DNA of 64,000 nucleotides. Source: an uncultured Candidatus Saccharibacteria bacterium (GTDB lineage Bacteria; Patescibacteriota; Saccharimonadia; Saccharimonadales; Saccharimonadaceae). The position numbers were made by a program, and so were the translations under genes. Numbering within the stretch: position 1 is the stretch's first letter; the number at the start of each line of letters is the position of its first letter. The stretch spans positions 1,219-65,218 of the forward strand of contig CAYZNY010000006.1 in NCBI GenBank assembly GCA_964480265.1. The letters run 5' to 3'. The notes beneath the pieces are model-generated. The model had not been told where the DNA came from. It worked only from the letters and a program-made list of their open reading frames with translations, and did no database searches. Below, in pieces: positions 2,191 to 34,287 of this stretch.

Positions 2191-3513
2191 CTAGTTTCTT
2201 ACTGTGCCGTTATTATCGCAAGCCCCGTTACTCCAACCATCTTTCGTATACCAGCTGTGCCAGCAATTCGAAGTCACCCAAGAATTTTTCTCGATATTCG
2301 TACCCTGCCCGTCTGTGCTACTCAACTCGAACTCTGGATACGGGAAGAATATATCCGCGGCATCAAGGCGCGCCTCAACTCGGCGATACAGTTGGTTGGT
2401 CCGGCCAGTAGAATCCACACTAATCTGCGAGCCTTGGAAATTGATTTTTGATTCCACGCCAGCCTCGTTGGTTTTTGCGAGCTCGACCTTGAAATCCGTG
2501 AACGCATCACCATATGGCATATTCACAACCAAGAAAACGTTATCACCGTTATTCAGCAAACGCCCGGCGCCATCTGCAACTTCCAAATCAATGTTGCAGA
2601 CAAATTCGTCACCAGGAGCGCATTTTACGCCAAACGGCTTGTGATTGTCCTTGTTATAGCTAGAAATCACATTGCCAGCACCAGCAATTGTAGACCTGGA
2701 AATTGAGCTAACCACCTTATCGCCATCCGCCGGCAAAAGCAGTAATGAGCTATACAATACTTCGCTATTATTATCAGAATCCCAGAAATTCGACAAATCA
2801 GCTGCCGCACTGGCTTTTATCAACGTAATTTGCATAGCTGGTGGAGTGGTTCTTCCTGTGTAGTTCGGCAATACCCAAGTCCCTGAATCGTCATCATAGC
2901 CGGCAAGCGTAAATTCGATATTGCTACCCTGATTTAGCTCCGAATACCAGCTAAACTTAATTTTCGACACCTTCCCGATTCCCTCAGAATTGATCCCCGA
3001 ACCATTCACCGCCAGTGGTACTACACGCGTCCGCGTATCAGATGTCAAGGTTCCGCGATAATCCGGTGTGATATCAGAAATTATGACACACGTATAGGCC
3101 TGATCGACAAAGGTTTCGGAATTAGTCTGACCACTCTCCTGGATTTTGACTTCGCCGGTAAAATTGGTGCCGTATAAGACCCTCGCAAGCGGGAATCCCT
3201 GCGAACAATCGTCGTCGTGCTGTTCTCTCCCGCTAAATACGTTCTTGTTTTCGCACTGGGCCGCACCCTTTTCCTGGACACACTTATAATAATTATTCAC
3301 GGCAACTTTCGCGTCCTCAACCCCAGCTATCGCCGAGTCGTAGGCAGATTGCGATAGATCATCATTGCTACTCTGCGTGGCCTCAGAAAGGATAATCCGC
3401 GTGAAGCTGACCGTGATCACGCCAAACAGAATTGTTGCAAAAATCACCACATAGAGCGAAGCGACGCCGCGTTTAGTTTTTAGATTGGGTTTTTTGAATT
3501 GTATCTTCTTCAT
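2191..3513 (-). CDS. pilus-associated protein with a PilX-N/TadG-like N-terminal anchor
   Basis: The N-terminus KRGVASLYVVIFATILFGVITVSFTRIILSEATQSSNDDLSQSAYDSAIAGVEDA resembles the anchor of PilX_N/TadG-type minor pilus proteins. AGGAGG lies upstream of the ATG. The gap to the upstream gene is 10 nt. Confidence 0.5.
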   Translation of the reverse strand: MKKIQFKKPNLKTKRGVASLYVVIFATILFGVITVSFTRIILSEATQSSNDDLSQSAYDSAIAGVEDAKVAVNNYYKCVQEKGAAQCENKNVFSGREQHDDDCSQGFPLARVLYGTNFTGEVKIQESGQTNSETFVDQAYTCVIISDITPDYRGTLTSDTRTRVVPLAVNGSGINSEGIGKVSKIKFSWYSELNQGSNIEFTLAGYDDDSGTWVLPNYTGRTTPPAMQITLIKASAAADLSNFWDSDNNSEVLYSSLLLLPADGDKVVSSISRSTIAGAGNVISSYNKDNHKPFGVKCAPGDEFVCNIDLEVADGAGRLLNNGDNVFLVVNMPYGDAFTDFKVELAKTNEAGVESKINFQGSQISVDSTGRTNQLYRRVEARLDAADIFFPYPEFELSSTDGQGTNIEKNSWVTSNCWHSWYTKDGWSNGACDNNGTVRN

Positions 3514-3523
3514 CTCCTACCTC

Positions 3524-6500
3524 CTAATACCTTGGTGCCAGTTCCCTAGCATATGCATCGGTATAACTAGAATCATAACGCCCGGCTTGCGCAAATGACC
3601 ATAAATATGACAAAGCACTGAGATTGAACACTTCGCTAGATGTATTTTTAAAGGAACTTATGCCGTAGGCAAGATTATCGGCACCATAAGTCCGGTTCAG
3701 CGTCACCGACTTAGCAACCACCGGGCCATTGATTTGTAACCGATTATCGCAAGTGGTGTTTTGGTTACGATAGACGCTCTGGGTCTCGGTCGTCTTTTCT
3801 ACCCAGTCACTGCAAGTATTGATATTGCCATTTGCAATAATCCAAGCATCAAGCCTTGTCACACTCGGGGCAATCTCTACGTTTCCATCAACATAAATCA
3901 CGACTTGTGGCATCTCGTAAATCGTCTTGCCGCTGGTATTTGCCAGTTCAACATTGCTAGAAATAGTCAAAGTACCATTCTCCCCACCCGGATTGAAGTA
4001 GAGAATTCGCGTGTCGCCTACGCCCACCGCTCCATCATAAGACTTCTCCTCCTGGTCGGCGTTTGTCGCATGGCTCTTCAAATAAGCCGACAGCCTGGTA
4101 CTATATGAAGAATTATAGTTGATACCCGAATTACCGAGCGTAGTTCCATTGGCTACTAGTCCTATATTCGTGATTGTCTGCCAAGCCATATCCCATTGAT
4201 TACCGCTGACTAAGCCCGGGATACCGGCGCCATAGGCCCCGCTCGATGCAAACCGAGAAACTTCGCCTTGGGCTGCCACGATATTCTCGGCCCACGAACC
4301 ATAGGTAGTCTTCTCGCTATCATTATTAAGCTTGGTCGGCTGGCCATTATTTGCTTCGTTATGCCTTGGCGCGGTGGAAGACGACACCCCCGCACCAGAG
4401 AACAGGCTGCCATTCCATACTGCAAAACTTGGTTTCTTGGCAATCGTGCGGCAAGTGGCACTATAATTCGTCCAATAATCTTTGCCGGGGACATAAGTCC
4501 AAGTTGCAACATCGTCGGTCAAACCGCTCGCATCACTAGCTTTCGCAACGCCCCACCAATAGCCCCATTTGTAGCCATAGGAGTTGCAATACTTCCCACC
4601 AACGTTATCCGGAACAGCGATATCAAGTTGCTGCGTGAATGCATCCTGCTCGCTATTATTCGGGGTCGGAACAAGCTGGGTAGCCTTCCCGGCAATACCA
4701 TCGGCATTTTCTTCGATACTCAACCCATCACCGCTAAACTCAGCACAGTTCGCCCCACCAAACGATATCAATCGACCTCCACTCTTCGTGCGGAAATAAT
4801 TACATGGATCACTCGACACGTGGCCGCCAGCATTGACGACGCTTGCGCCTGTGACGTCATCCCGCACTACAAAACCTATCGCAGAATAATCCTTCACCCG
4901 GCGAGTCGGGACGGACTTTGCTGCAACTTTCCAGCCAATACCAGTGTGCTCGCCGGCATACATGATATCGGATGCGCTATCGCCGCCATTCTTAGGGCCG
5001 TATGGATCCGGGTCACCACCCTCAGGTGGATCTGCCGGGCGCGTGATCTCGATGCAGGCTTCAGAGTCCTCGGAATCGTTATTGGCTTGTGGAGTGCCGT
5101 AGTCCCATCGAGGACCAATAGACCACGGACCAGTCCAGATCAAGCTCTCCGTAATTGGGGTAGTATAAGTCTTCGGACTATATTTAATCTTGTGGCAAAC
5201 TTTATAAGTTTTGCCTGCCTCCATACCAGAAATTGTATAAGTATGGGTAGATACTTCTTCTCCGCCATTGTCTGTATCTTTATCGGTGCCAGCTTTATAG
5301 GTCGCGTCTTCGTCGTTATTATTCTCTACAACACCACCAGTATCACCGGTCAGTTCATAGCTTAAATTAGTCTGCGAGCCAACATACACCCAGTCACCAT
5401 TGCAAGAACCGTCGGCATTGGTCGAAATACACCCATCCCAATAACGCCACATATTTCTTGTCCAATCCGTCCAATCGAAATCCATATTATGCGAAAGTGT
5501 AAATTGCAAAGAGTCACTATCGGTGCTGACTTTGAGCCCGACCGCAGCATCCTTATCCGAAGTCTGTTTGCCGGGGTCGTACCCACCAAGCTGAGCACTG
5601 GCGTTCGGAACCTGCACGCTAGAAGTTGCCCAAAATTCATCCTTAGGCTCCGCAGGTTTGTCGATACGCTTCGCAACAACACAAACCGATGTGTGCGCAC
5701 GTCCTGTTTCTTTAACAATATCTCCACCGTCTGCGCTAGTAAAAACAAAGCGTAGTGGCTCAATGGTCATAGTCTGGCACTTTGTCGCAGTCGACCCGAC
5801 GTTATCAAGTTGTAACGTGTATGGCTTGTTGCCGACATTGGTATGCTCCTTCTTCTTTTTCCAAGGCTCGATCTCCCAATCCGTAGAACAAAGATCTCTA
5901 CCACCGCACGCGTCAACATCTCCATCGGCGATATCATACCAAAGATCTAATCTAAAACTACGATCAGACCATCGTTTTTTGGTTTCATCCCAGCTAGAAT
6001 CTTCATTTTGATAATACTGGTTATGCCACATATTCCCAGATACACTGCTATTAGATGTTTCCACAGTAATAGTCATAACATTATTCTTACCAAAACCAGT
6101 GCTGTCCGGGCCAACATCCGCCCCAGTCTTGGAGCCAGAAACCCCGTTAACGCTGACTCCCGAGTTGGCGGTCACATAGCCCTTACCTTTTGTCTCGTCA
6201 GTATAGTCTGAACAAAACCATGTGGTATTACCCCATGCGGCATCATCCGGTCCAATCAAGTTTAACTCCTTTGCTTTATCGTGTTGAGCTTTAACATCAT
6301 TCCATTTTTCTGTCCCCGCCAGACTTTCAATAACATTATAGCTTCCAGACCCACCCGCATAAGTAGGCTTCACTTGGTGTACCTGGACACCAGGATTAAA
6401 TGCTTGCTCACCCACAAATGACCAACTACTGGCCGAACTACCTTTTTTGACTTTCTCATAGGCAAGCACAAAGTAGCCCTTAGCCCCGATCGCACTACAC

Positions 6501-6733: not shown

Positions 6734-7501
6734 TTAGTCTCCCTCATGTAATTTAATATCTGCATCCTCTTCCAATTGTCGGTATTTTTCTGCCATCTCT
6801 GCGTCGCCTAAGGCAATGTAGGATGACTTAATAGCGGCATACACCAAGCTCTGCTCTTTTGAGCTAAGCGCATTAAAATCAAGTTGCTGAGATACATCTA
6901 TTACTTCGTCATACTCGCTATGTTGAAACAGGGTGATTAGCTCTGCTGCCTGGATGGCGTTCCTCTGCTTCTGGTCATTACTCGCCGATACTGCGTTCTC
7001 TGTTGCCGCCCTAACGCTGCCTATACCTTGCGCTCCAGAATTTTCTCCCGCCGATGCCTCATTATCTATTCCCGAAATTGACCGCAACTGAGTTAAATAT
7101 TTTTCAACAGCACTATTATCCCCATCGCTATCCCCCTCATAACTATTGCCAAGAGTTAATTCCGTTGGTTTTTTCTCATGATCTTTCGGCGATACTAGCA
7201 TCATAATCATCCATATGGTAGCCCCCATAATTGCAATGGTCAACACGCCCAAAACAATCCAAAACCACAATGGCCGCTTCGTTCTTACTCTTGAACCATT
7301 TTGAGGGAATTGTTTTGTCTTTTTAGCCTCTTTATCTTTTTTGTCTTTAACTTTCTTGACTTTTTCTGATTTGTGTTTTTTGCCCGAGCCAATCTTGCTA
7401 GCATCAAAACCAGCGTTTATAGCCGAAGTAGGCTTCACCGGTTGCACCGGGGCCTGATTCTGCACCTGCGGTGCAGTTGCACCCTTTCCCTCCTCGTTCA
7501 T
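6734..7501 (-). CDS. bitopic membrane protein: K-rich disordered N-terminus, one TM helix, helical/TPR-like C-terminal domain
   Basis: The TM segment is LWFWIVLGVLTIAIMGATIWMIMMLV. The C-terminus is similar by eye to 13039..13731. It is the first gene of its operon, with TGcTATAAT 7 nt upstream of the ATG (leaderless-type). Confidence 0.7.
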   Translation of the reverse strand: MNEEGKGATAPQVQNQAPVQPVKPTSAINAGFDASKIGSGKKHKSEKVKKVKDKKDKEAKKTKQFPQNGSRVRTKRPLWFWIVLGVLTIAIMGATIWMIMMLVSPKDHEKKPTELTLGNSYEGDSDGDNSAVEKYLTQLRSISGIDNEASAGENSGAQGIGSVRAATENAVSASNDQKQRNAIQAAELITLFQHSEYDEVIDVSQQLDFNALSSKEQSLVYAAIKSSYIALGDAEMAEKYRQLEEDADIKLHEGD

Positions 7502-28482: not shown

Positions 28483-28557
28483 TGGTGCGAGTGGAGAGAG
28501 TCGAACTCTCATCTCAAGTTTGGAAAACTTGCATACTAACCGCTGTACTACACTCGC
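28483..28557 (-). tRNA. tRNA-Gly(TCC), CCA encoded
   Basis: The reverse complement is GCGAGTGTAGTACAGCGGTTAGTATGCAAGTTTTCCAAACTTGAGATGAGAGTTCGACTCTCTCCACTCGCACCA. Confidence 0.9.
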
Positions 28558-29310
28558 AAAACTACCCTGGGGTGCCTTGTCGAGTCGAAATGGAACCAAA
28601 TTGCCTCAGAGTTTTTCAGAGTTAAACATATTATCTCTGTTTCTCCTCTATCGGCATATTGCCATCGATGACAAGCTACCTACCGCGTTACCCCTATGCT
28701 TATATAAGATGTAGGCCTTATCTTCTACACCTTATGACTGATTATAACACGAATAATTGAGTAAAAGCAAAAAATAGAGAATAGGTGAATATCCCCCTTG
28801 TTGCCTTGGAACTTATACTGATAGGTCTCGTTGTGACACTAACTCTAACACACTTAGTGGATATAGATTAAACAGACATAGACCGATACACTCAAGAGAG
28901 ATAACTGATACGATTTCAGTTTGATCAAGACCAACCAAAGAGAAGTGGTAGAGAAATAGAGTACACTAATACTAGCTCGCGCTAAGATAGCAGATACTCA
29001 ATCACTGGGGAGTTAAGATCCTAGTTCATACACTCGATATCTCATCAAGCTTCTGATATTCTACCCCTAGTGTAGCATGATATCGGCGAGGTGTTTTTTA
29101 TTTTTGGGGACTTTTTTGCTGATTTTTGGTTGTTTTGGATGATTTCGATGAAGCAAAACTAATGACCCCTATCGTTATATAGAGATATGCCAGTTCCTTG
29201 CAGACCAAATGCGACAACCTATAAAAATGAAATTGGTCTGATACTATAAGAGATGGAGGTCTAGTTGCCTCCTATTGTATAAATATTTATAAGAACACGG
29301 AGGAATTTTG

Positions 29311-29724
29311 ATGTTCAAAGATATAATTAACCAAATAGTAAGAGATTATCCCGAAGAGCAGCTATTATCAGCAATAGAAAATCTCGACGGAGAGGAATGG
29401 ACGACGGATTATAGAACGGCTATTATAGAAAGCGATAGCAACGGTTCTTTTGGTGATGCGTCAAAGATTAAGGATAAATATGATGCAGTCTACAATTTTC
29501 AACCAGAGATTCATCCATCTGGAATTAACTTTGTTATAAAAACACATAGCTCTGATTTTTGGGTTGCTATGCCTTTGCTTCCGTTTGTGAGCTGCTTTGG
29601 GCTGAATAATATTCTGTATTCTGGAGAAGGCTTTGACTGGCAATTCAAACTAATCGAGGAAACTGCTAGAATGTGTGGTGTTGAACCGAGCAATGATATT
29701 ATTCGGCATATGTATATGGCTTAG
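29311..29724 (+). CDS. hypothetical protein (island cargo)
   Basis: The ATG has GGAGG 8 nt upstream. No motif was recognised. Confidence 0.55.
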   Translation: MFKDIINQIVRDYPEEQLLSAIENLDGEEWTTDYRTAIIESDSNGSFGDASKIKDKYDAVYNFQPEIHPSGINFVIKTHSSDFWVAMPLLPFVSCFGLNNILYSGEGFDWQFKLIEETARMCGVEPSNDIIRHMYMA

Positions 29725-29852
29725 TGGCTAATTAAATGGGTTTTGCCGTATTATCGTATACTTTTAGTCTCTAGACTAGCCATTCTCTCTATATCATTTC
29801 TCTTTGACAACCAAAAAATCATCAGCAGATAAAATGGTATAGTAAAACTATT

Positions 29853-30419
29853 ATGGCTAGACCGTCAAAATACAACAAAGAACTAGTAGCGCAAATTGTC
29901 GACTATATCGCTGATGGGCTAACTATCCGTGATACTTGCTATGGGGCTGGGATATCTGAGGACACTTTTTGGAGATGGAATCGAGAAAAGCTAGAGTTTG
30001 CTGAAGTTATCAAAGAAGCTACCAATCGCCAAAAGTGGACTAGCGAAGCTTTGAAGCGTACGAGCGAGTACCGAAGGTACACGAGAAAGGCTCATATCTA
30101 TTCTAGAAAGACGCTGAAGCGTCAGAAGCCTGTCCGTGTTCGTATCGCATCAGAAAAGCCCTTAGAACGAGCCCTAGAAGCCTCAGAGGGCATAATTAGC
30201 CAAAACACTGGTAGACGGCAGCCAAGTCCAAGAAATATCCTTCCGACTCGTTCTGAGGCTCCGATTAATGCTTTTGGTGAATTGGTATTCTCTAGGCCCT
30301 ACTACAACCAAACTACCGACCGAGTTGAATGGATTGAGAAAGAAACCTACGGTAGATATGTCCTCCACTCGTGTAGGGTGGAAGTGTGGGAGGAATCGTT
30401 AGCAAAGAATGAGGGATAG
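29853..30419 (+). CDS. HTH DNA-binding protein resembling phage terminase small subunits
   Basis: The N-terminus MARPSKYNKELVAQIVDYIADGLTIRDTCYGAGISEDTFWRWNREKLEFAEVIKEA follows the RPSKY...I...G.S...C...GIS..TF..W...EF pattern common in phage small terminase/HTH proteins. Confidence 0.4.
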   Translation: MARPSKYNKELVAQIVDYIADGLTIRDTCYGAGISEDTFWRWNREKLEFAEVIKEATNRQKWTSEALKRTSEYRRYTRKAHIYSRKTLKRQKPVRVRIASEKPLERALEASEGIISQNTGRRQPSPRNILPTRSEAPINAFGELVFSRPYYNQTTDRVEWIEKETYGRYVLHSCRVEVWEESLAKNEG

Positions 30420-30463
30420 CCCAGTATTAGACTATCCCTCACAAGTACTGCAAATAGCTAAAA

Positions 30464-31861
30464 CTATTTGTTATTCTTTTTGCGTAGAATTTGCCTTCGA
30501 GCCACAATAGTAGCACCAGCAGCAGTTAGAACCGATACAACACCAGCAGCAATTTTAATGCCAGCTGTTGCAGCAGATGAGCCGTCACTCTTGGCGATAA
30601 CACCACTGTTTGGGGCTTTGCCTTTTGGATATTCAACAATACCGTAGACACTAAAGTGGTCAGTCTCAAAGGTTAGCCAACCGTCACTACTGACTTTAAC
30701 ACCCTTGATGGCTTGGGCTTGGTCGGTGAGATATTCGCCATTCATAGCCATCGGAACATAATAGACGACAAAATCGCTATTTACATTCATATTGCTTGGC
30801 AGTTTGATAGATACTTGGACTTTGCCAGTATCAGTGACGACATTGTTTAGGCTATCACGGATGTAGATATCGTAGAAGGCTTGGTTGAGACTATTCTTGA
30901 AGTTATTGCCAGTTAGTTTGAGCAAATCATCAGCAACTTTATCGACATTCAATGTGTAGTTGATATTGATGTTGACACCACTGACTTTGACATTCTTGTC
31001 GCTACTCTCGATAGTATTACTTGGTTTATTGTCCGTATTGGCATTATCACCAGTTGGAGGAGTAGTAATATCCCCACCGTTGTCACCAAATGGGTCGGTA
31101 CTGAGGATGTAGTTTACTTTGAAGTTGGGGTCAATTTGGGTAGCAGCACAGACGAGCTCATAAGCAGCGTATTTGTAGTCAAAGCTGCCGTCATCTTGTG
31201 TCACACTTGGGTCTAGAGATTTTGATAACTCGAATATTGATTCATACTGATAGAAAATAGACTCACCAAAGACAGTCTTATTATAGTGGTCAATAACTCT
31301 ATTCCGTAAAGTGCCCAAGTCAGAGGTGTCAGAAACATTTATTGATGGATATGCTGCTTTGATAGCATTCTTGTAGGTGGTTAGCATCTCTGCATAAGAT
31401 TTCTCTGCTTTTGATACTGCGGCTTGTAATGCCGTATCTGTGTCATAACCGTCTGTTTTTTTGACCTCTTCTATAACGGATTCATAAGAGCGTCCATCGA
31501 AATCATACCAATCCTTGATGGCACCAGCTGCTTTTGCTTCGGTTATTAGAGTGCTGGTTATTGTAGAGAGCGTTTCACCCATTGTATTGTCAGCATTTTG
31601 GAATTTAGCAAAAGCGTCATATCCATCCACTTTTTTAGCAGAGTTGAGAATATCGGTAAAATTCCCCTTGCTAATTTGCACATTATCCCACGATGACGGC
31701 ATTGGTACATTGGGGCTACAAGCAGCACCTCCTCCAGCATACACAGCTCCATTCCCCATCATTAGATTTGTGGCGATTGGAGCCAGCGACAAAGTCGCAC
31801 AAAGTGCTCCAGTACCAATCGCAGCACAGATGCTACGAGCGTTAAAGTTGATTTTTGGCAT
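30464..31861 (-). CDS. secreted, C-terminally anchored surface protein (island cargo)
   Basis: It has a signal peptide and a C-terminal TM helix plus a basic tail (AAGVVSVLTAAGATIVARRQILRKKNNK), preceded by KAPNSG, which may be a degenerate sortase motif. GGGAGG lies upstream of the ATG. Confidence 0.7.
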   Translation of the reverse strand: MPKINFNARSICAAIGTGALCATLSLAPIATNLMMGNGAVYAGGGAACSPNVPMPSSWDNVQISKGNFTDILNSAKKVDGYDAFAKFQNADNTMGETLSTITSTLITEAKAAGAIKDWYDFDGRSYESVIEEVKKTDGYDTDTALQAAVSKAEKSYAEMLTTYKNAIKAAYPSINVSDTSDLGTLRNRVIDHYNKTVFGESIFYQYESIFELSKSLDPSVTQDDGSFDYKYAAYELVCAATQIDPNFKVNYILSTDPFGDNGGDITTPPTGDNANTDNKPSNTIESSDKNVKVSGVNININYTLNVDKVADDLLKLTGNNFKNSLNQAFYDIYIRDSLNNVVTDTGKVQVSIKLPSNMNVNSDFVVYYVPMAMNGEYLTDQAQAIKGVKVSSDGWLTFETDHFSVYGIVEYPKGKAPNSGVIAKSDGSSAATAGIKIAAGVVSVLTAAGATIVARRQILRKKNNK

Positions 31862-31915
31862 AATGTTTGCCTCCCTTGTTTTGGTTAAGTTAACTTATCC
31901 CCACAAGGTATCCAA

Positions 31916-32074
31916 AAACAAAAAGGACACCGTGCATTGGGTGTTTAGAGTCCAATTAGCAAGTAGGCTTTCGCCCCCTTGGCACGATGTCCTAGTTTGG
32001 GGCGAAAAGCACTGGTATTGAGTGTTTTCTTACCTACAGCTGCTAATTGATTGACTCTAAACAGTTTTATTATA
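31916..32074 (-). promoter_or_regulatory. extended -10 promoter plus structured leader (or sRNA) of about 147 nt with a terminator-like end, upstream of 30464..31861
   Basis: On the minus strand, TGtTATAAT is at 32069-32077. The outer stems are GTTTAGAGTC/GACTCTAAAC (10 bp) and AATTAGC/GCTAATT (7 bp). The inner stems are GTAGG/CCTAC and CTTTCGCCCC/GGGGCGAAAG. Then comes ACACC/GGTGT followed by TTTTTGTTTTT. Confidence 0.45.
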
Positions 32075-32298
32075 ACACAAAAACAAGTGGGAATACGGAA
32101 AATGCGTTGCTGGTAATAGGGGTAGGATAGTGTGAAATACACAAAGCGTACGAAAATAAAAAATCCTCTAGCGATTGCGTGCTAGTATAAAACTATACAA
32201 GACTTCGTCTGACTAATAGGCTAACAGACGGACAATCTTAATGACATCTATTGGTGACGCTCACCGGCATAACAACTCTTAGCCATAGGTGATTGCAG

Positions 32299-32526
32299 AT
32301 GTCAAAGGATATTTTCAGCCACTCAAAAACAGACAAGGCAAAACAAAAACAGTCAATTGAGGATCTCCTCGATAAGCCAATCATTAGTGTTAAGGAGGCG
32401 AGAAAGATTATTGGCAAAGAGGCCTCAAGTCGGTTCTCAGACGAGGAGCTTGGGTATATTATTGGTCAGATGAACTTTCTTGCCAACAAGATGCTCGACG
32501 CAAGTTTGGTTCCACAAAAACGATAA
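32299..32526 (+). CDS. small hypothetical protein immediately upstream of the recombinase
   Basis: It is 75 aa from the first ATG and lies 22 nt before the recombinase gene. A role as a regulator or directionality factor is speculation. Confidence 0.4.
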   Translation: MSKDIFSHSKTDKAKQKQSIEDLLDKPIISVKEARKIIGKEASSRFSDEELGYIIGQMNFLANKMLDASLVPQKR

Positions 32527-32548
32527 CTAATGGTATTATGGAGATTAT

Positions 32549-34231
32549 ATGGACGGCATTAGAAAAAAGGCCTATGGTTACAGACGCGTTTCTACCGTAG
32601 GGCAAGTAGACGGAGCTTCTCTGGGAACACAGACAGAGAAAATAACAAGTTATGCAGAAGCAAACAATATCGAAATCGTGGATTGGTTTGAGGATCCAGG
32701 TTATTCAGCGAAAGATGCTAATAGGCCAGACCTTCAAAGAATGCTTGAGTCAATCAAGAAACACAAGGGTGAAGTTGACTTCGTTATCATTCACGACAGC
32801 ACACGGTTATCCAGAAACCTAGCTTCTTTTTATGTCGATATTTGGCCCACGCTGCACAAGAACGGTGTACGGCTCTTATCAGCAACAGAGAATTACGGCG
32901 ACGAAAAAGACCCGACTGGCGACATTCCAATGATTTTCGGTGTTCTTACTGGTCAAATTGACAATAAGAATAAATCTAATTCTACTAAAAATAATATGGA
33001 TGACCTTTTTAGCAACAGTGGCTGGTGGATGGGTGGCAGAACGCCACTAGGATATAGGATTGAACGCATATTCGTTGAAGGAAGGCAGCGCGATGGTCAT
33101 CAGAAGTCCCACGCCATACTGGTGCCAGACAACACCAATGGTCTTGCAGATAAAATTGCTTTTTTGCTTAACCGTTTTTCCGAGGGTGATTTGTTATCAT
33201 CGGATCTACTTCAAATCGCCCATAAAATAGATATCCGCGGCTTCAAAGGTGAACTGCTCGCGCAAAGCACTCTAGATGGCATCTTAACAAACGAAATCTA
33301 TGCTGGATATCATACATCAAAAACGATGGCCAACCAGCAAAGGGTTAAAATGAGGTTCGGAGGCATAATATCGTTAGAGACATACGAGAAAAATCAAAGA
33401 ATTATAAATAAAAATGGCAAACCCCACGAAAAGAGTAATGAATTGGAATATCCACTCAGCAAAACTGCTTGTTGCGCTATTTGTGGCGCAATGATGACCG
33501 ACGAGGAAAGAGAAGTAAAAACCACAAAAGGCAAGCTTCCATACCTTCGTTATAGCGCACCAAAAAGTGGTTCCGGCAAGCACACTCCACGCTATAGTTG
33601 TAAATGTAGAGGACACGGATCTATTCGTGCTTCCGATGCCCATCAGATTTTTGAATGCTATCTCAAGCAAATTACGCCAACCAAAGAAATGGTAAAGTTA
33701 TTCAAAGAGATTGTGAGACGCACGGCCCTCAAAAAACTCGGCAATACCAATAAACAAATTAGCGAGCTTGAAGCAAAAAGTAAAGAGATTCGGAATGATA
33801 AAGAAAATGCTCTTAAGAAGCTTTTAAAGAACGATATGGGGCTCGACGACGGTGAACAGCGAGAGCTAATGGGGTCATATGATGCCGATCGTAGTAGGAT
33901 TGAGTCTGAACTCGCAGATCTGAAGCAAATCCAGTTATTGAGAGAAGCCGACATTGAGTATGTCTGCAACTTTATGAGTATGCCAGCTAAACTTTGGCGA
34001 GATGGCGATTTAGAGACTAAGCAAGCTATTCAAAAGATGATTTTTCCAAATGGCATATATTTTGACCTCAAGAATAAAAAGTGTGGAACCAACGAAATTA
34101 GCCCTCTGTTCTCTGTTACAGACATCAAAAAAGCACCTTCTGGTGCAGATTTGAATGCTCTGGGGTGGGATATCGGAATTGAACCGACGACCTTCTGGAC
34201 CACAATCAGACGCTCTAACCAACTGAGCTAA
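32549..34231 (+). CDS. large serine recombinase (resolvase-type catalytic domain + recombinase domain + zinc ribbon + coiled coil)
   Basis: The N-terminus is YGYRRVSTVGQVDGASLGTQ...DPGYSAKDANRPDLQRML...FVIIHDSTRLSRN, with the catalytic Ser in RVST. Cys clusters are CCAICG...YSCKCRGH. The last 35 codons or so are antisense to the tRNA-His terminator and tRNA-His. Confidence 0.85.
   Translation: MDGIRKKAYGYRRVSTVGQVDGASLGTQTEKITSYAEANNIEIVDWFEDPGYSAKDANRPDLQRMLESIKKHKGEVDFVIIHDSTRLSRNLASFYVDIWPTLHKNGVRLLSATENYGDEKDPTGDIPMIFGVLTGQIDNKNKSNSTKNNMDDLFSNSGWWMGGRTPLGYRIERIFVEGRQRDGHQKSHAILVPDNTNGLADKIAFLLNRFSEGDLLSSDLLQIAHKIDIRGFKGELLAQSTLDGILTNEIYAGYHTSKTMANQQRVKMRFGGIISLETYEKNQRIINKNGKPHEKSNELEYPLSKTACCAICGAMMTDEEREVKTTKGKLPYLRYSAPKSGSGKHTPRYSCKCRGHGSIRASDAHQIFECYLKQITPTKEMVKLFKEIVRRTALKKLGNTNKQISELEAKSKEIRNDKENALKKLLKNDMGLDDGEQRELMGSYDADRSRIESELADLKQIQLLREADIEYVCNFMSMPAKLWRDGDLETKQAIQKMIFPNGIYFDLKNKKCGTNEISPLFSVTDIKKAPSGADLNALGWDIGIEPTTFWTTIRRSNQLS
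34127..34146 (-). terminator. intrinsic terminator of tRNA-His, inside the recombinase ORF
   Basis: On the minus strand: GCACC-agaa-GGTGC followed by T6, 15 nt after the tRNA CCA end. Confidence 0.55.
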
Positions 34232-34238
34232 TCCCACC
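34161..34238 (-). tRNA. tRNA-His(GTG) with extra 5' G(-1), CCA encoded
   Basis: The reverse complement is G-GTGGGATTAGCTCAGTTGGTTAGAGCGTCTGATTGTGGTCCAGAAGGTCGTCGGTTCAATTCCGATATCCCAC-C-CCA. Confidence 0.85.
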
Positions 34239-34287
34239 ACACCAGTACGCCATCATTATACCACAATGTAGAGGCGCGCTCAATACC

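Follow-up and report, generated by a model that had tools for sequence, protein, structure and literature searches.

Results

The integrase gene and its overlap with tRNA-His

The window analysed in this study, a stretch of 64,000 nucleotides (nt) on contig CAYZNY010000006.1 of a Candidatus Saccharibacteria assembly of ~0.8 Mb, contains a small island that lies between the genes for tRNA-Gly and tRNA-His. At the tRNA-His end of the island there is a gene for a large serine recombinase (LSR), hereafter the integrase, whose open reading frame (ORF) runs into the convergent tRNA gene and stops within it. A resolvase-type catalytic domain was recognised at residues 8-129 of the protein (PF00239, E 3e-24) together with a recombinase domain (PF07508, E 7e-6). 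Across 57 aligned sequences, the window protein among them, the R-x-S motif is invariant, as are other positions. The ORF overlaps 34161-34231 in antisense, which corresponds to 71 of the 77 nt of tRNA-His (tRNA positions 7-77), and it also takes in a minus-strand terminator a short way beyond the tRNA 3' end (34146..34127), which consists of a G+C-rich hairpin of 5 bp and a T6 run. tRNA-His is present as a single copy among the 45 tRNA genes of the genome. An earlier note on this DNA had described a 105-nt overlap (34127-34231) comprising the terminator and nearly the whole tRNA in antisense, and had interpreted the GIEP peptide in the tail of the protein as a T-arm read backwards; with the tRNA predicted by ARAGORN and the position of the hairpin the coordinates proved to be exact, and the peptide is indeed the antisense reading of the T-arm.

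T-arm-antisense peptides, derived from several different tRNAs, form the C-terminus of 64 of the 77 closest homologues (33-66 % identity). A homologue was detected in 61 of the 401 genomes of an order-wide sample. At 26 of the 26 loci with a detected tRNA (Glu-ttc, Glu-ctc, Met-cat or His-gtg), the tRNA is convergent with the ORF, the stop codon falls inside the tRNA and the tRNA 3' end stands in the same codon phase, with TGG, the antisense of the CCA end, occupying codon positions 2, 3 and 1 each time. Since the same arrangement is found in these homologues and loci, the overlap seen in the window is real and not due to chance. A fixed phase is what would be expected if the frame has to be read on into a tail encoded in the P' arm of the attachment site, as described below. 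The earlier note had also considered that homologues from unrelated contexts might share the C-terminal peptide, which would then be a genuine part of the enzyme; close homologues were found to share it solely because they, too, are located at tRNA-His.

The insertion site

Eleven same-genus relatives were examined for an empty site, and in none of the 11 is there a recombinase within 1.5 kb of tRNA-His. In five of them tRNA-Gly lies 2-13 nt past the tRNA-His 3' end, and the empty-site tRNA-His of one relative (G014) is 100 % identical to that of the window. At the left attachment site (attL) of the window the order is tRNA-Gly, a 10-nt spacer, TGGGGTG and then divergence from the tRNA. TGGGGTG is also found at the attL of two related elements (L043 and L046), and a third (L044) has TGGGGT. 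As the same 7 nt are present at attL and at the right attachment site (attR), strand exchange can be placed within TGGGGTG, and the shorter shared core of L044 narrows it to 6 nt. Codon 538 of the integrase begins at 34160; the integrated and the excised form of the gene are the same up to 34167 and differ from 34168 on, which is the third base of codon 540. Measured from core to core (28568 to 34161), the element has a length of 5593 bp; the G+C content of the island is ~0.40 against ~0.50 in the flanks, and the shift falls between tRNA-Gly and tRNA-His. Cores range from 6 to 12 nt across 17 related elements, and the 7-nt core of the window was missed by a generic repeat search with a minimum of 12 nt. 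The sequence of tRNA-His is left unchanged by the insertion because the element brings identical terminal bases as well as its own terminator.

Two origins of the C-terminal end had been put forward in the earlier note. One of these, that integration has fused a host-derived tail to the enzyme, is supported by the junctions: only 7 nt are shared, everything 3' of 34167 is host tRNA, and a 32-codon tail has been displaced to attL. The other, that the element carries a tRNA-like 3' segment with the element's attachment site (attP) inside the end of its own integrase gene, holds in one half; attP is indeed situated within the 3' end of the gene, but instead of a long tRNA-like segment there are just the 7-nt core and a shifted T-arm-like motif in the P' arm. 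The empty sites of the island-free relatives and the left junction together define the crossover at codons 538-540, inside the ORF, and not well outside it, an outcome that the note had kept in view.

It was further observed that the island has severed tRNA-Gly(tcc) from the promoter of tRNA-His (window 28483-28760), with which it is probably co-transcribed in relatives that have an empty site. No outward promoter of sigma-70-like sequence that might serve tRNA-Gly was detected at the left end of the island. In three relatives (loci L003, L008 and L010 of genomes G004, G021 and G020), partial copies of the tRNA-His 3' end occur between tRNA-Gly and tRNA-His, within 150 nt 3' of tRNA-His. These copies are 12-29 nt long, and some of them contain inserts and short inverted repeats. 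As they exceed the 7-nt core in length, an element of another kind probably left them behind as scars.

The detached 32-codon tail

If 34167 is joined to 28575, the integrase frame runs through 32 more codons (28573-28668) to a TGA stop and gives a protein of 571 residues. In tblastn comparisons, tails in frame after the core were found at the attL of three other tRNA-His elements, with 90 % (L043), 84 % (L046) and 77 % (L044) identity to the window tail, and the attL tail of a tRNA-Glu element whose integrase is only 35 % identical (L047) still shows 53 % identity. When the 20-kb flanks were searched in 20 more genomes, the tail motif was seen after the tRNA-end core in ten additional elements at tRNA-Met or tRNA-Glu, at a distance of 4-10 kb on the upstream side of the integrase. 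The motif is W-N-x-I-x-x-E-x-x-R amid hydrophobic residues spaced by 3-4 positions. Tail frame and stop codon are intact in 16 of 17 related elements, the exception (L045) being one in which the integrase has also decayed.

Several features of the left arm bear on the way in which this segment evolves. Among the His-type elements nucleotide similarity ends ~110 nt into the arm, which is the end of the tail frame. Differences per site at codon positions 1, 2 and 3 amount to 0.04-0.06, 0.00 and 0.24, respectively, in four His-type elements, and the pattern holds close to the core as well as at a distance of 36-72 nt. Farther out in the tail, beyond the att half-site, 15 codon differences are synonymous and 3 non-synonymous. 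The invariant Arg of the tail is encoded by AGA, AGG, CGA, CGC or CGG across related elements. This pattern of substitution indicates that the detached segment evolves as a coding sequence. The codons of the W-N pair, TGG AAC, are constant even at their third positions, and this portion of the tail is doubly constrained, as a DNA site and as protein. Since no gene lies upstream of the tail when the element is integrated, selection would have to operate through a state in which the tail is joined to the integrase, either the excised circle or a tandem array. On these grounds the tail is probably a functional protein segment that is used in the excised state.

A 12-nt repeat, CTCAGAGTTTTT (28605-28616), that had been noticed at the island boundary lies within the tail frame, where it covers the codons S-E-F-F. 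The repeat is probably coincidental, as its nucleotide sequence is not conserved in related elements.

Architecture of the attachment sites

The P' arm resembles the acceptor and T-arm antisense of the B' arm, displaced outward. Over 17 elements the best register between P' and B' is +5 bp, at which 166 of 408 positions match; with shuffled P' arms the maximum averaged 119 matches and never exceeded 134. For the LI integrase, the motif bound by the zinc-ribbon domain has been reported to lie 5 bp closer to the centre in attB than in attP (PMC3783163), and the +5 register, as read from the aligned arms, agrees with this attP/attB rule of serine integrases. The invariance of TGG AAC can be ascribed to the shifted T-arm motif that the P' arm carries. 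On the element side of attR, 16 of 17 related sites show A6, a hairpin, ~12 nt and the core, in this order. The terminator at attR sits where the host tRNA terminators sit at attL, and doubles as a K-K-rich linker of the protein.

Related elements and uninterrupted genes

Besides tRNA-His, the targets of related elements include tRNA-Glu, tRNA-Met and tRNA-Arg. A second element of the family is present in the same genome. Its integrase (contig C4:78603-80222) is 45 % identical to that of the window, and the frame crosses the whole of tRNA-Glu(ctc) as part of a 646-codon open frame. A 7-mer search of contig C4 for its attL returned chance hits only, whereas a search with the tail peptide located the attL core and tail on another contig (C13:7521-7607); a repeat of ~55 nt occurs at the ends of both contigs, which gives the second element a length of ~5.7 kb. 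The tRNA-Arg(ccg) element L045, in which the integrase match is broken into three pieces (3051-4603) and the tail (6956-7025) is out of frame with the core, is by these lesions a decaying copy. Tandem tail-bearing att junctions were observed upstream of one integrase at two loci, three in L067 (oriented coordinates 11141, 11958 and 13451) and two in L055 (7473 and 9861), some of them following what is left of an integrase 3' end. They are either tandem arrays or decayed neighbours, and an upstream integrase could in this way regain a tail without excision.

Uninterrupted genes that include the tail were also encountered. P0023, on a contig of 4320 bp, is 70 % identical to the second integrase of the window's genome, and its tail is 92 % identical to the tail at the attL of the second element. 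Another such gene, P0053, lies on a contig of 4989 bp, and two C-terminal integrase fragments (P0209 and P0159) bear the tail. At locus L054 (G336:C24, 11960-13681) an uninterrupted attP-form integrase of 573 residues, with the tRNA-Glu core TGGTGACC followed by the tail, is found on a 44-kb contig; its neighbours include a weak match to a tail-spike-like protein and ATPases. L054 may represent a free or differently integrated larger element. A profile built from 17 tails and searched against 1.84 billion representative proteins matched 100 protein clusters at E <= 0.001, nearly all of them short ORFs ending in the tail, as expected for attL sites. Almost no full-length attP-form integrases were retrieved by this search, which is no gauge of the number of free forms; full-length forms were probably missed as uninterrupted and integrated forms cluster together at 50 % identity.

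Predicted fold of the integrase

The structural model considered here is the AlphaFold model of P0023, which is 44 % identical to the window integrase and is not the window protein itself. Its per-residue confidence score (pLDDT) is above 85 up to about residue 500. Residues 6 to 497-500 align with the whole chains of the SPbeta-type, Bxb1, PhiC31 and LI integrases (Foldseek E 1e-16 to 9e-19; VIA Z 13-17), and long helices at 358-451 as well as conserved Cys residues are present in the model, in keeping with the zinc-ribbon domain, with its inserted coiled coil, that follows the recombinase domain in large serine recombinases. With the fold complete by about residue 500, the canonical enzyme would be complete in both states. 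The exchanged appendage is modelled, at low confidence, as a disordered linker and a short helix (523-535). A sequence search of solved structures reached the catalytic domain only. The model suggests that the role of the tail is regulatory and not catalytic; its heptad-like spacing would, as a speculation, be well suited for packing against the coiled coil by which these enzymes govern direction.

Other genes of the island

The features of the island and its borders are listed in Table 1. Besides the integrase, the only genes common to related elements are the one with a helix-turn-helix (HTH) like that of terminase small subunits and the short ORF directly upstream of int (orf77). The product of the former matches phrog_1482 (E 7e-9) in its N-terminal HTH only, and no helper phage is known. 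The two shared genes hint at a satellite-like lifestyle, and orf77 is a candidate regulator or directionality factor. PICI-like phage satellites are characterised by an integrase, a gene that redirects packaging (a small terminase) and induction that depends on a helper. The four island ORFs other than the integrase showed no Pfam or PHROG match of the dsiA, parB or mom type, the genes that accompany a comparable integrase discussed below.

Table 1. Features of the island and of its two borders, in window coordinates
Feature	Coordinates	Strand	Remarks
tRNA-Gly(tcc)	28483..28557	-	Host gene, single copy in genome; 2-13 nt downstream of tRNA-His in empty-site relatives
attL core TGGGGTG	28568..28574	+	Former 3'-terminal 7 nt of tRNA-His, displaced; antisense of CACCCCA
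Split-off integrase 3' end, 32 codons and TGA stop	28573..28671	+	In frame with core; would join codon 539 in excised circle
T-arm-like motif in P' arm	28585..28597	+	Begins 17 nt from core start; in B' the real T-arm motif (34173-34185) begins at 12 nt
Non-coding left arm	28672..29307		Not conserved among related elements
138-aa cargo ORF	29308..29724	+	No family match
188-aa protein, HTH like terminase small subunit	29853..30419	+	Conserved in 4 related elements
Secreted cargo protein of 465 aa, anchored at its C-terminus	30464..31861	-	Specific to window element
77-aa ORF (orf77)	32293..32526	+	Directly precedes int; conserved among 5 related elements; without Pfam or PHROG match
Large serine recombinase ORF, 560 aa (integrated state)	32549..34231	+	Codons 1-539 element DNA, codons 540-560 tRNA-His antisense
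Intrinsic terminator for tRNA-His, hairpin and T6	34127..34146	-	Element-borne; plus strand encodes KK..-type integrase linker
attR core TGGGGTG	34161..34167	+	Contains crossover
tRNA-His(gtg)	34161..34237	-	Genome's only tRNA-His gene, intact despite insertion; ARAGORN
tRNA-His promoter-like site, TTGAGC-17-TATAAT with TG	34255..34283	-	Convergent with int ORF

Discussion

A proposed exchange of the tail on integration

We consider the anatomy of the split integrase gene to be secure. Very likely the element was inserted by its own integrase into the last 7 nt of tRNA-His, with attP within the integrase gene and with the tail of the enzyme swapped by the integration. Under this proposal attP would lie 32 codons before the natural stop of the recombinase gene, and the circle form would encode a 571-residue enzyme made up of the canonical LSR fold, a linker read from the antisense of the terminator and a conserved amphipathic tail. 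Strand exchange within TGGGGTG would carry the 32 codons 5.6 kb away to attL and would join codon 539 to tRNA antisense, so that a hybrid of 560 residues results in which 21 residues replace the 32-residue tail. The T-arm-like motif of the P' arm lies 5 bp farther out than the real T-arm in B', and it is by such a shift that serine integrases distinguish attP from the host site attB. The tail would be active only when the element is excised, and the activity, level or direction of the integrase would depend on the state of the DNA; the convergent tRNA promoter should in addition lower int expression in the integrated state. Control of the integrase by the state of the element is the function of the swap that we favour.

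A number of observations weigh against this proposal. Part of the conservation of the tail is a constraint on the DNA of the att site, since the W-N codons TGG AAC are constant at their third positions too. The pLDDT of the tail is below 50, and the alignment columns in that region are mostly tRNA-derived noise. The related elements are kin, and counts across them overstate their independence. No relative was found in IMG/VR scans with the protein and with the family alignment, and a scan of the reconstructed attP for dyad symmetry gave no clear centre, so that the central dinucleotide was not located. Excision of the window copy is itself a prediction from the assembled sequence. Finally, orf77 may be an ordinary directionality factor, in which case a role of the tail in direction would be unnecessary.

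Alternative explanations

The foremost alternative is that the overlap is incidental read-through: the functional enzyme would extend only to residue ~523 in the window protein, where the canonical fold ends, the ORF would run on simply as attP adjoins the gene, the tail would be conserved as DNA (a P' half-site, perhaps with an outward promoter), and its exchange would be meaningless. The canonical fold is indeed complete before the linker and the tail has a low pLDDT; however, the conservation extends ~70 nt past the core, much farther than a half-site of ~25 bp. The nucleotide invariance of TGG AAC fits a shifted T-arm motif, yet variation in the His group is 5-fold higher at third than at first positions and nil at second positions, and the invariant Arg is written in five different codons. 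For the corresponding overlap at ssrA, McMurdie et al. thought a coding role unlikely (PMC3146451). Against read-through also stand the detached frame and stop, intact in 16 of 17 elements, and the phase, fixed in 26 of 26 loci, which insertions and deletions in a meaningless linker would have scrambled. We regard read-through as unlikely.

It may also be argued that the window copy is a fixed, immobile remnant, and that the design is real for the family with no switching taking place here. The island carries no phage or conjugation genes, a long stretch of its left arm is non-coding, and a relative with decayed int and an out-of-frame tail (L045) illustrates such a fate. In the window, by contrast, the int ORF is intact and retains all family-invariant residues, the tail ORF is intact, and the attL and attR cores are identical; moreover the island is absent at tRNA-His in all 11 same-genus relatives, and the insertion is therefore recent. 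A remnant thus seems quite unlikely. The last alternative, a long tRNA-like 3' segment carried by the element with an element-encoded tail that is identical in both states, could appeal to the element-borne terminator and 7-nt core and to the T-arm-like motif in the P' arm, but it is highly implausible and was rejected on the comparison of the empty sites with attL, since attL retains only TGGGGTG of the tRNA, attR beyond the core is identical to the tRNA of empty-site relatives, and no second tRNA-His copy longer than 7 nt exists in the island.

Returning to state-dependent control of the integrase by exchange of its tail, a more specific version is that the tail is a built-in directionality device, in which the circle form with its tail would allow only attP x attB recombination and the integrated, tail-less hybrid would be competent for attL x attR. 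We hold this to be a possible but doubtful extension. If it were true, the state of the DNA would select the isoform that leaves that state, and little or no separate directionality factor would be needed; the CCA-end core and the P' T-arm mimic would let the family hop between tRNA targets.

Comparison with known systems

The closest parallel is DsiB of the Dehalococcoides ssrA islands, which we have likened to and set apart from the window integrase on the basis of its published description. The dsiB gene always overlaps attL at its 3' end, and it was suggested that it is perhaps fully functional only on the circle (McMurdie et al. 2011, PMC3146451). In both cases a large serine recombinase (~540 residues for DsiB) is encoded at the edge of a small integrative island, the gene overlaps the att repeat at its 3' end, and the target is the 3' end of a gene for a small stable RNA. 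The Dehalococcoides target, however, is the gene for transfer-messenger RNA with a direct repeat of ~20 nt, whereas the window family uses tRNA-His (Glu, Met and Arg in relatives) with a core of 6-12 nt at the CCA end. DsiB is accompanied by the small serine recombinase DsiA, ParB and Mom, and no such genes are present on the window island. Divergent ends were reported for those islands, with no report of a conserved far-end tail or of a +5 register.

A similar working is found among tyrosine recombinases. For the integrase of phage Mx8 (IntP/IntX), as relayed by two later papers, attP lies within int and integration creates a new 3' end, the prophage form of the enzyme having altered properties (Tojo 1996; Magrini 1999, via PMC6070905 and PMC4383910); the new end alters these properties without inactivating the integrase, according to the part of the account given in PMC6070905. 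Mx8 differs in its enzyme, a tyrosine recombinase with unrelated chemistry and site architecture, and in size, a phage of 49 kb against an element of 5.6 kb. SSV1-type fuselloviruses likewise have attP within the int gene, which is partitioned on integration into a tRNA gene, as summarised in a secondary source (via PMC4383910). Their enzyme, in contrast, is an archaeal tyrosine recombinase. The SSV1-type int is cut near its middle and inactivated, and its tail is not exchanged. By its serine recombinase domains and its fold, the window protein is not a member of the tyrosine class of Mx8 and SSV1 despite the like working.

With the phage LSRs (LI/A118, Bxb1, PhiC31 and SPbeta) the window integrase shares the domain order and fold, the short att sites and the outer attP motif 5 bp farther out, whereas in those systems attP lies outside the gene, the targets are mostly protein-coding and a separate directionality factor is needed. 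Integration-dependent immunity of mycobacteriophages, to which the exchange of C-termini may also be compared, relies on an attP inside the repressor gene, so that integration changes the C-terminus of the protein and its behaviour; the integrase is a tyrosine recombinase, and the removed part of the repressor is a degradation tag. There the repressor is split and here the integrase, and no degradation tag is evident in the window tail.

To our knowledge, textbook accounts describe the use of tRNA genes by tyrosine integrases only. According to the Islander paper, too, tyrosine integrases are the only ones known to use tRNA genes as targets; the paper also mentions that some integrases (Mx8, SSV) extend across attP (PMC4383910). 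The literature searched, most subscription journals being outside its coverage, yielded no account of a serine integrase that targets tRNA genes and has its gene split. DsiB at ssrA is the closest printed precedent; the window family is set apart from it by the target at the tRNA CCA end, the conserved tail at the far end and the +5 mimicry of the site.

Implications

Serine integrases are the main tools for the insertion of large DNA into genomes, and the control of their direction is an active structural question. The present analysis describes a whole clade of serine integrases that targets the CCA end of tRNA genes and that, as predicted from the split genes, would yield one protein isoform from the integrated element and another from the excised one. 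Were the tail to change the activity or the direction of the enzyme, it would constitute a natural switch, complete in itself, that engineers could copy. Should it be only regulatory trimming, the exchange still accounts for hundreds of odd 'GIEP'-tailed recombinase annotations in genomes of the candidate phyla radiation. It also provides a rule for delimiting small islands, with the core at the tRNA 3' end and the tail motif at the far end, and may be of interest to researchers working on serine integrases and on the mobile elements of the candidate phyla radiation.

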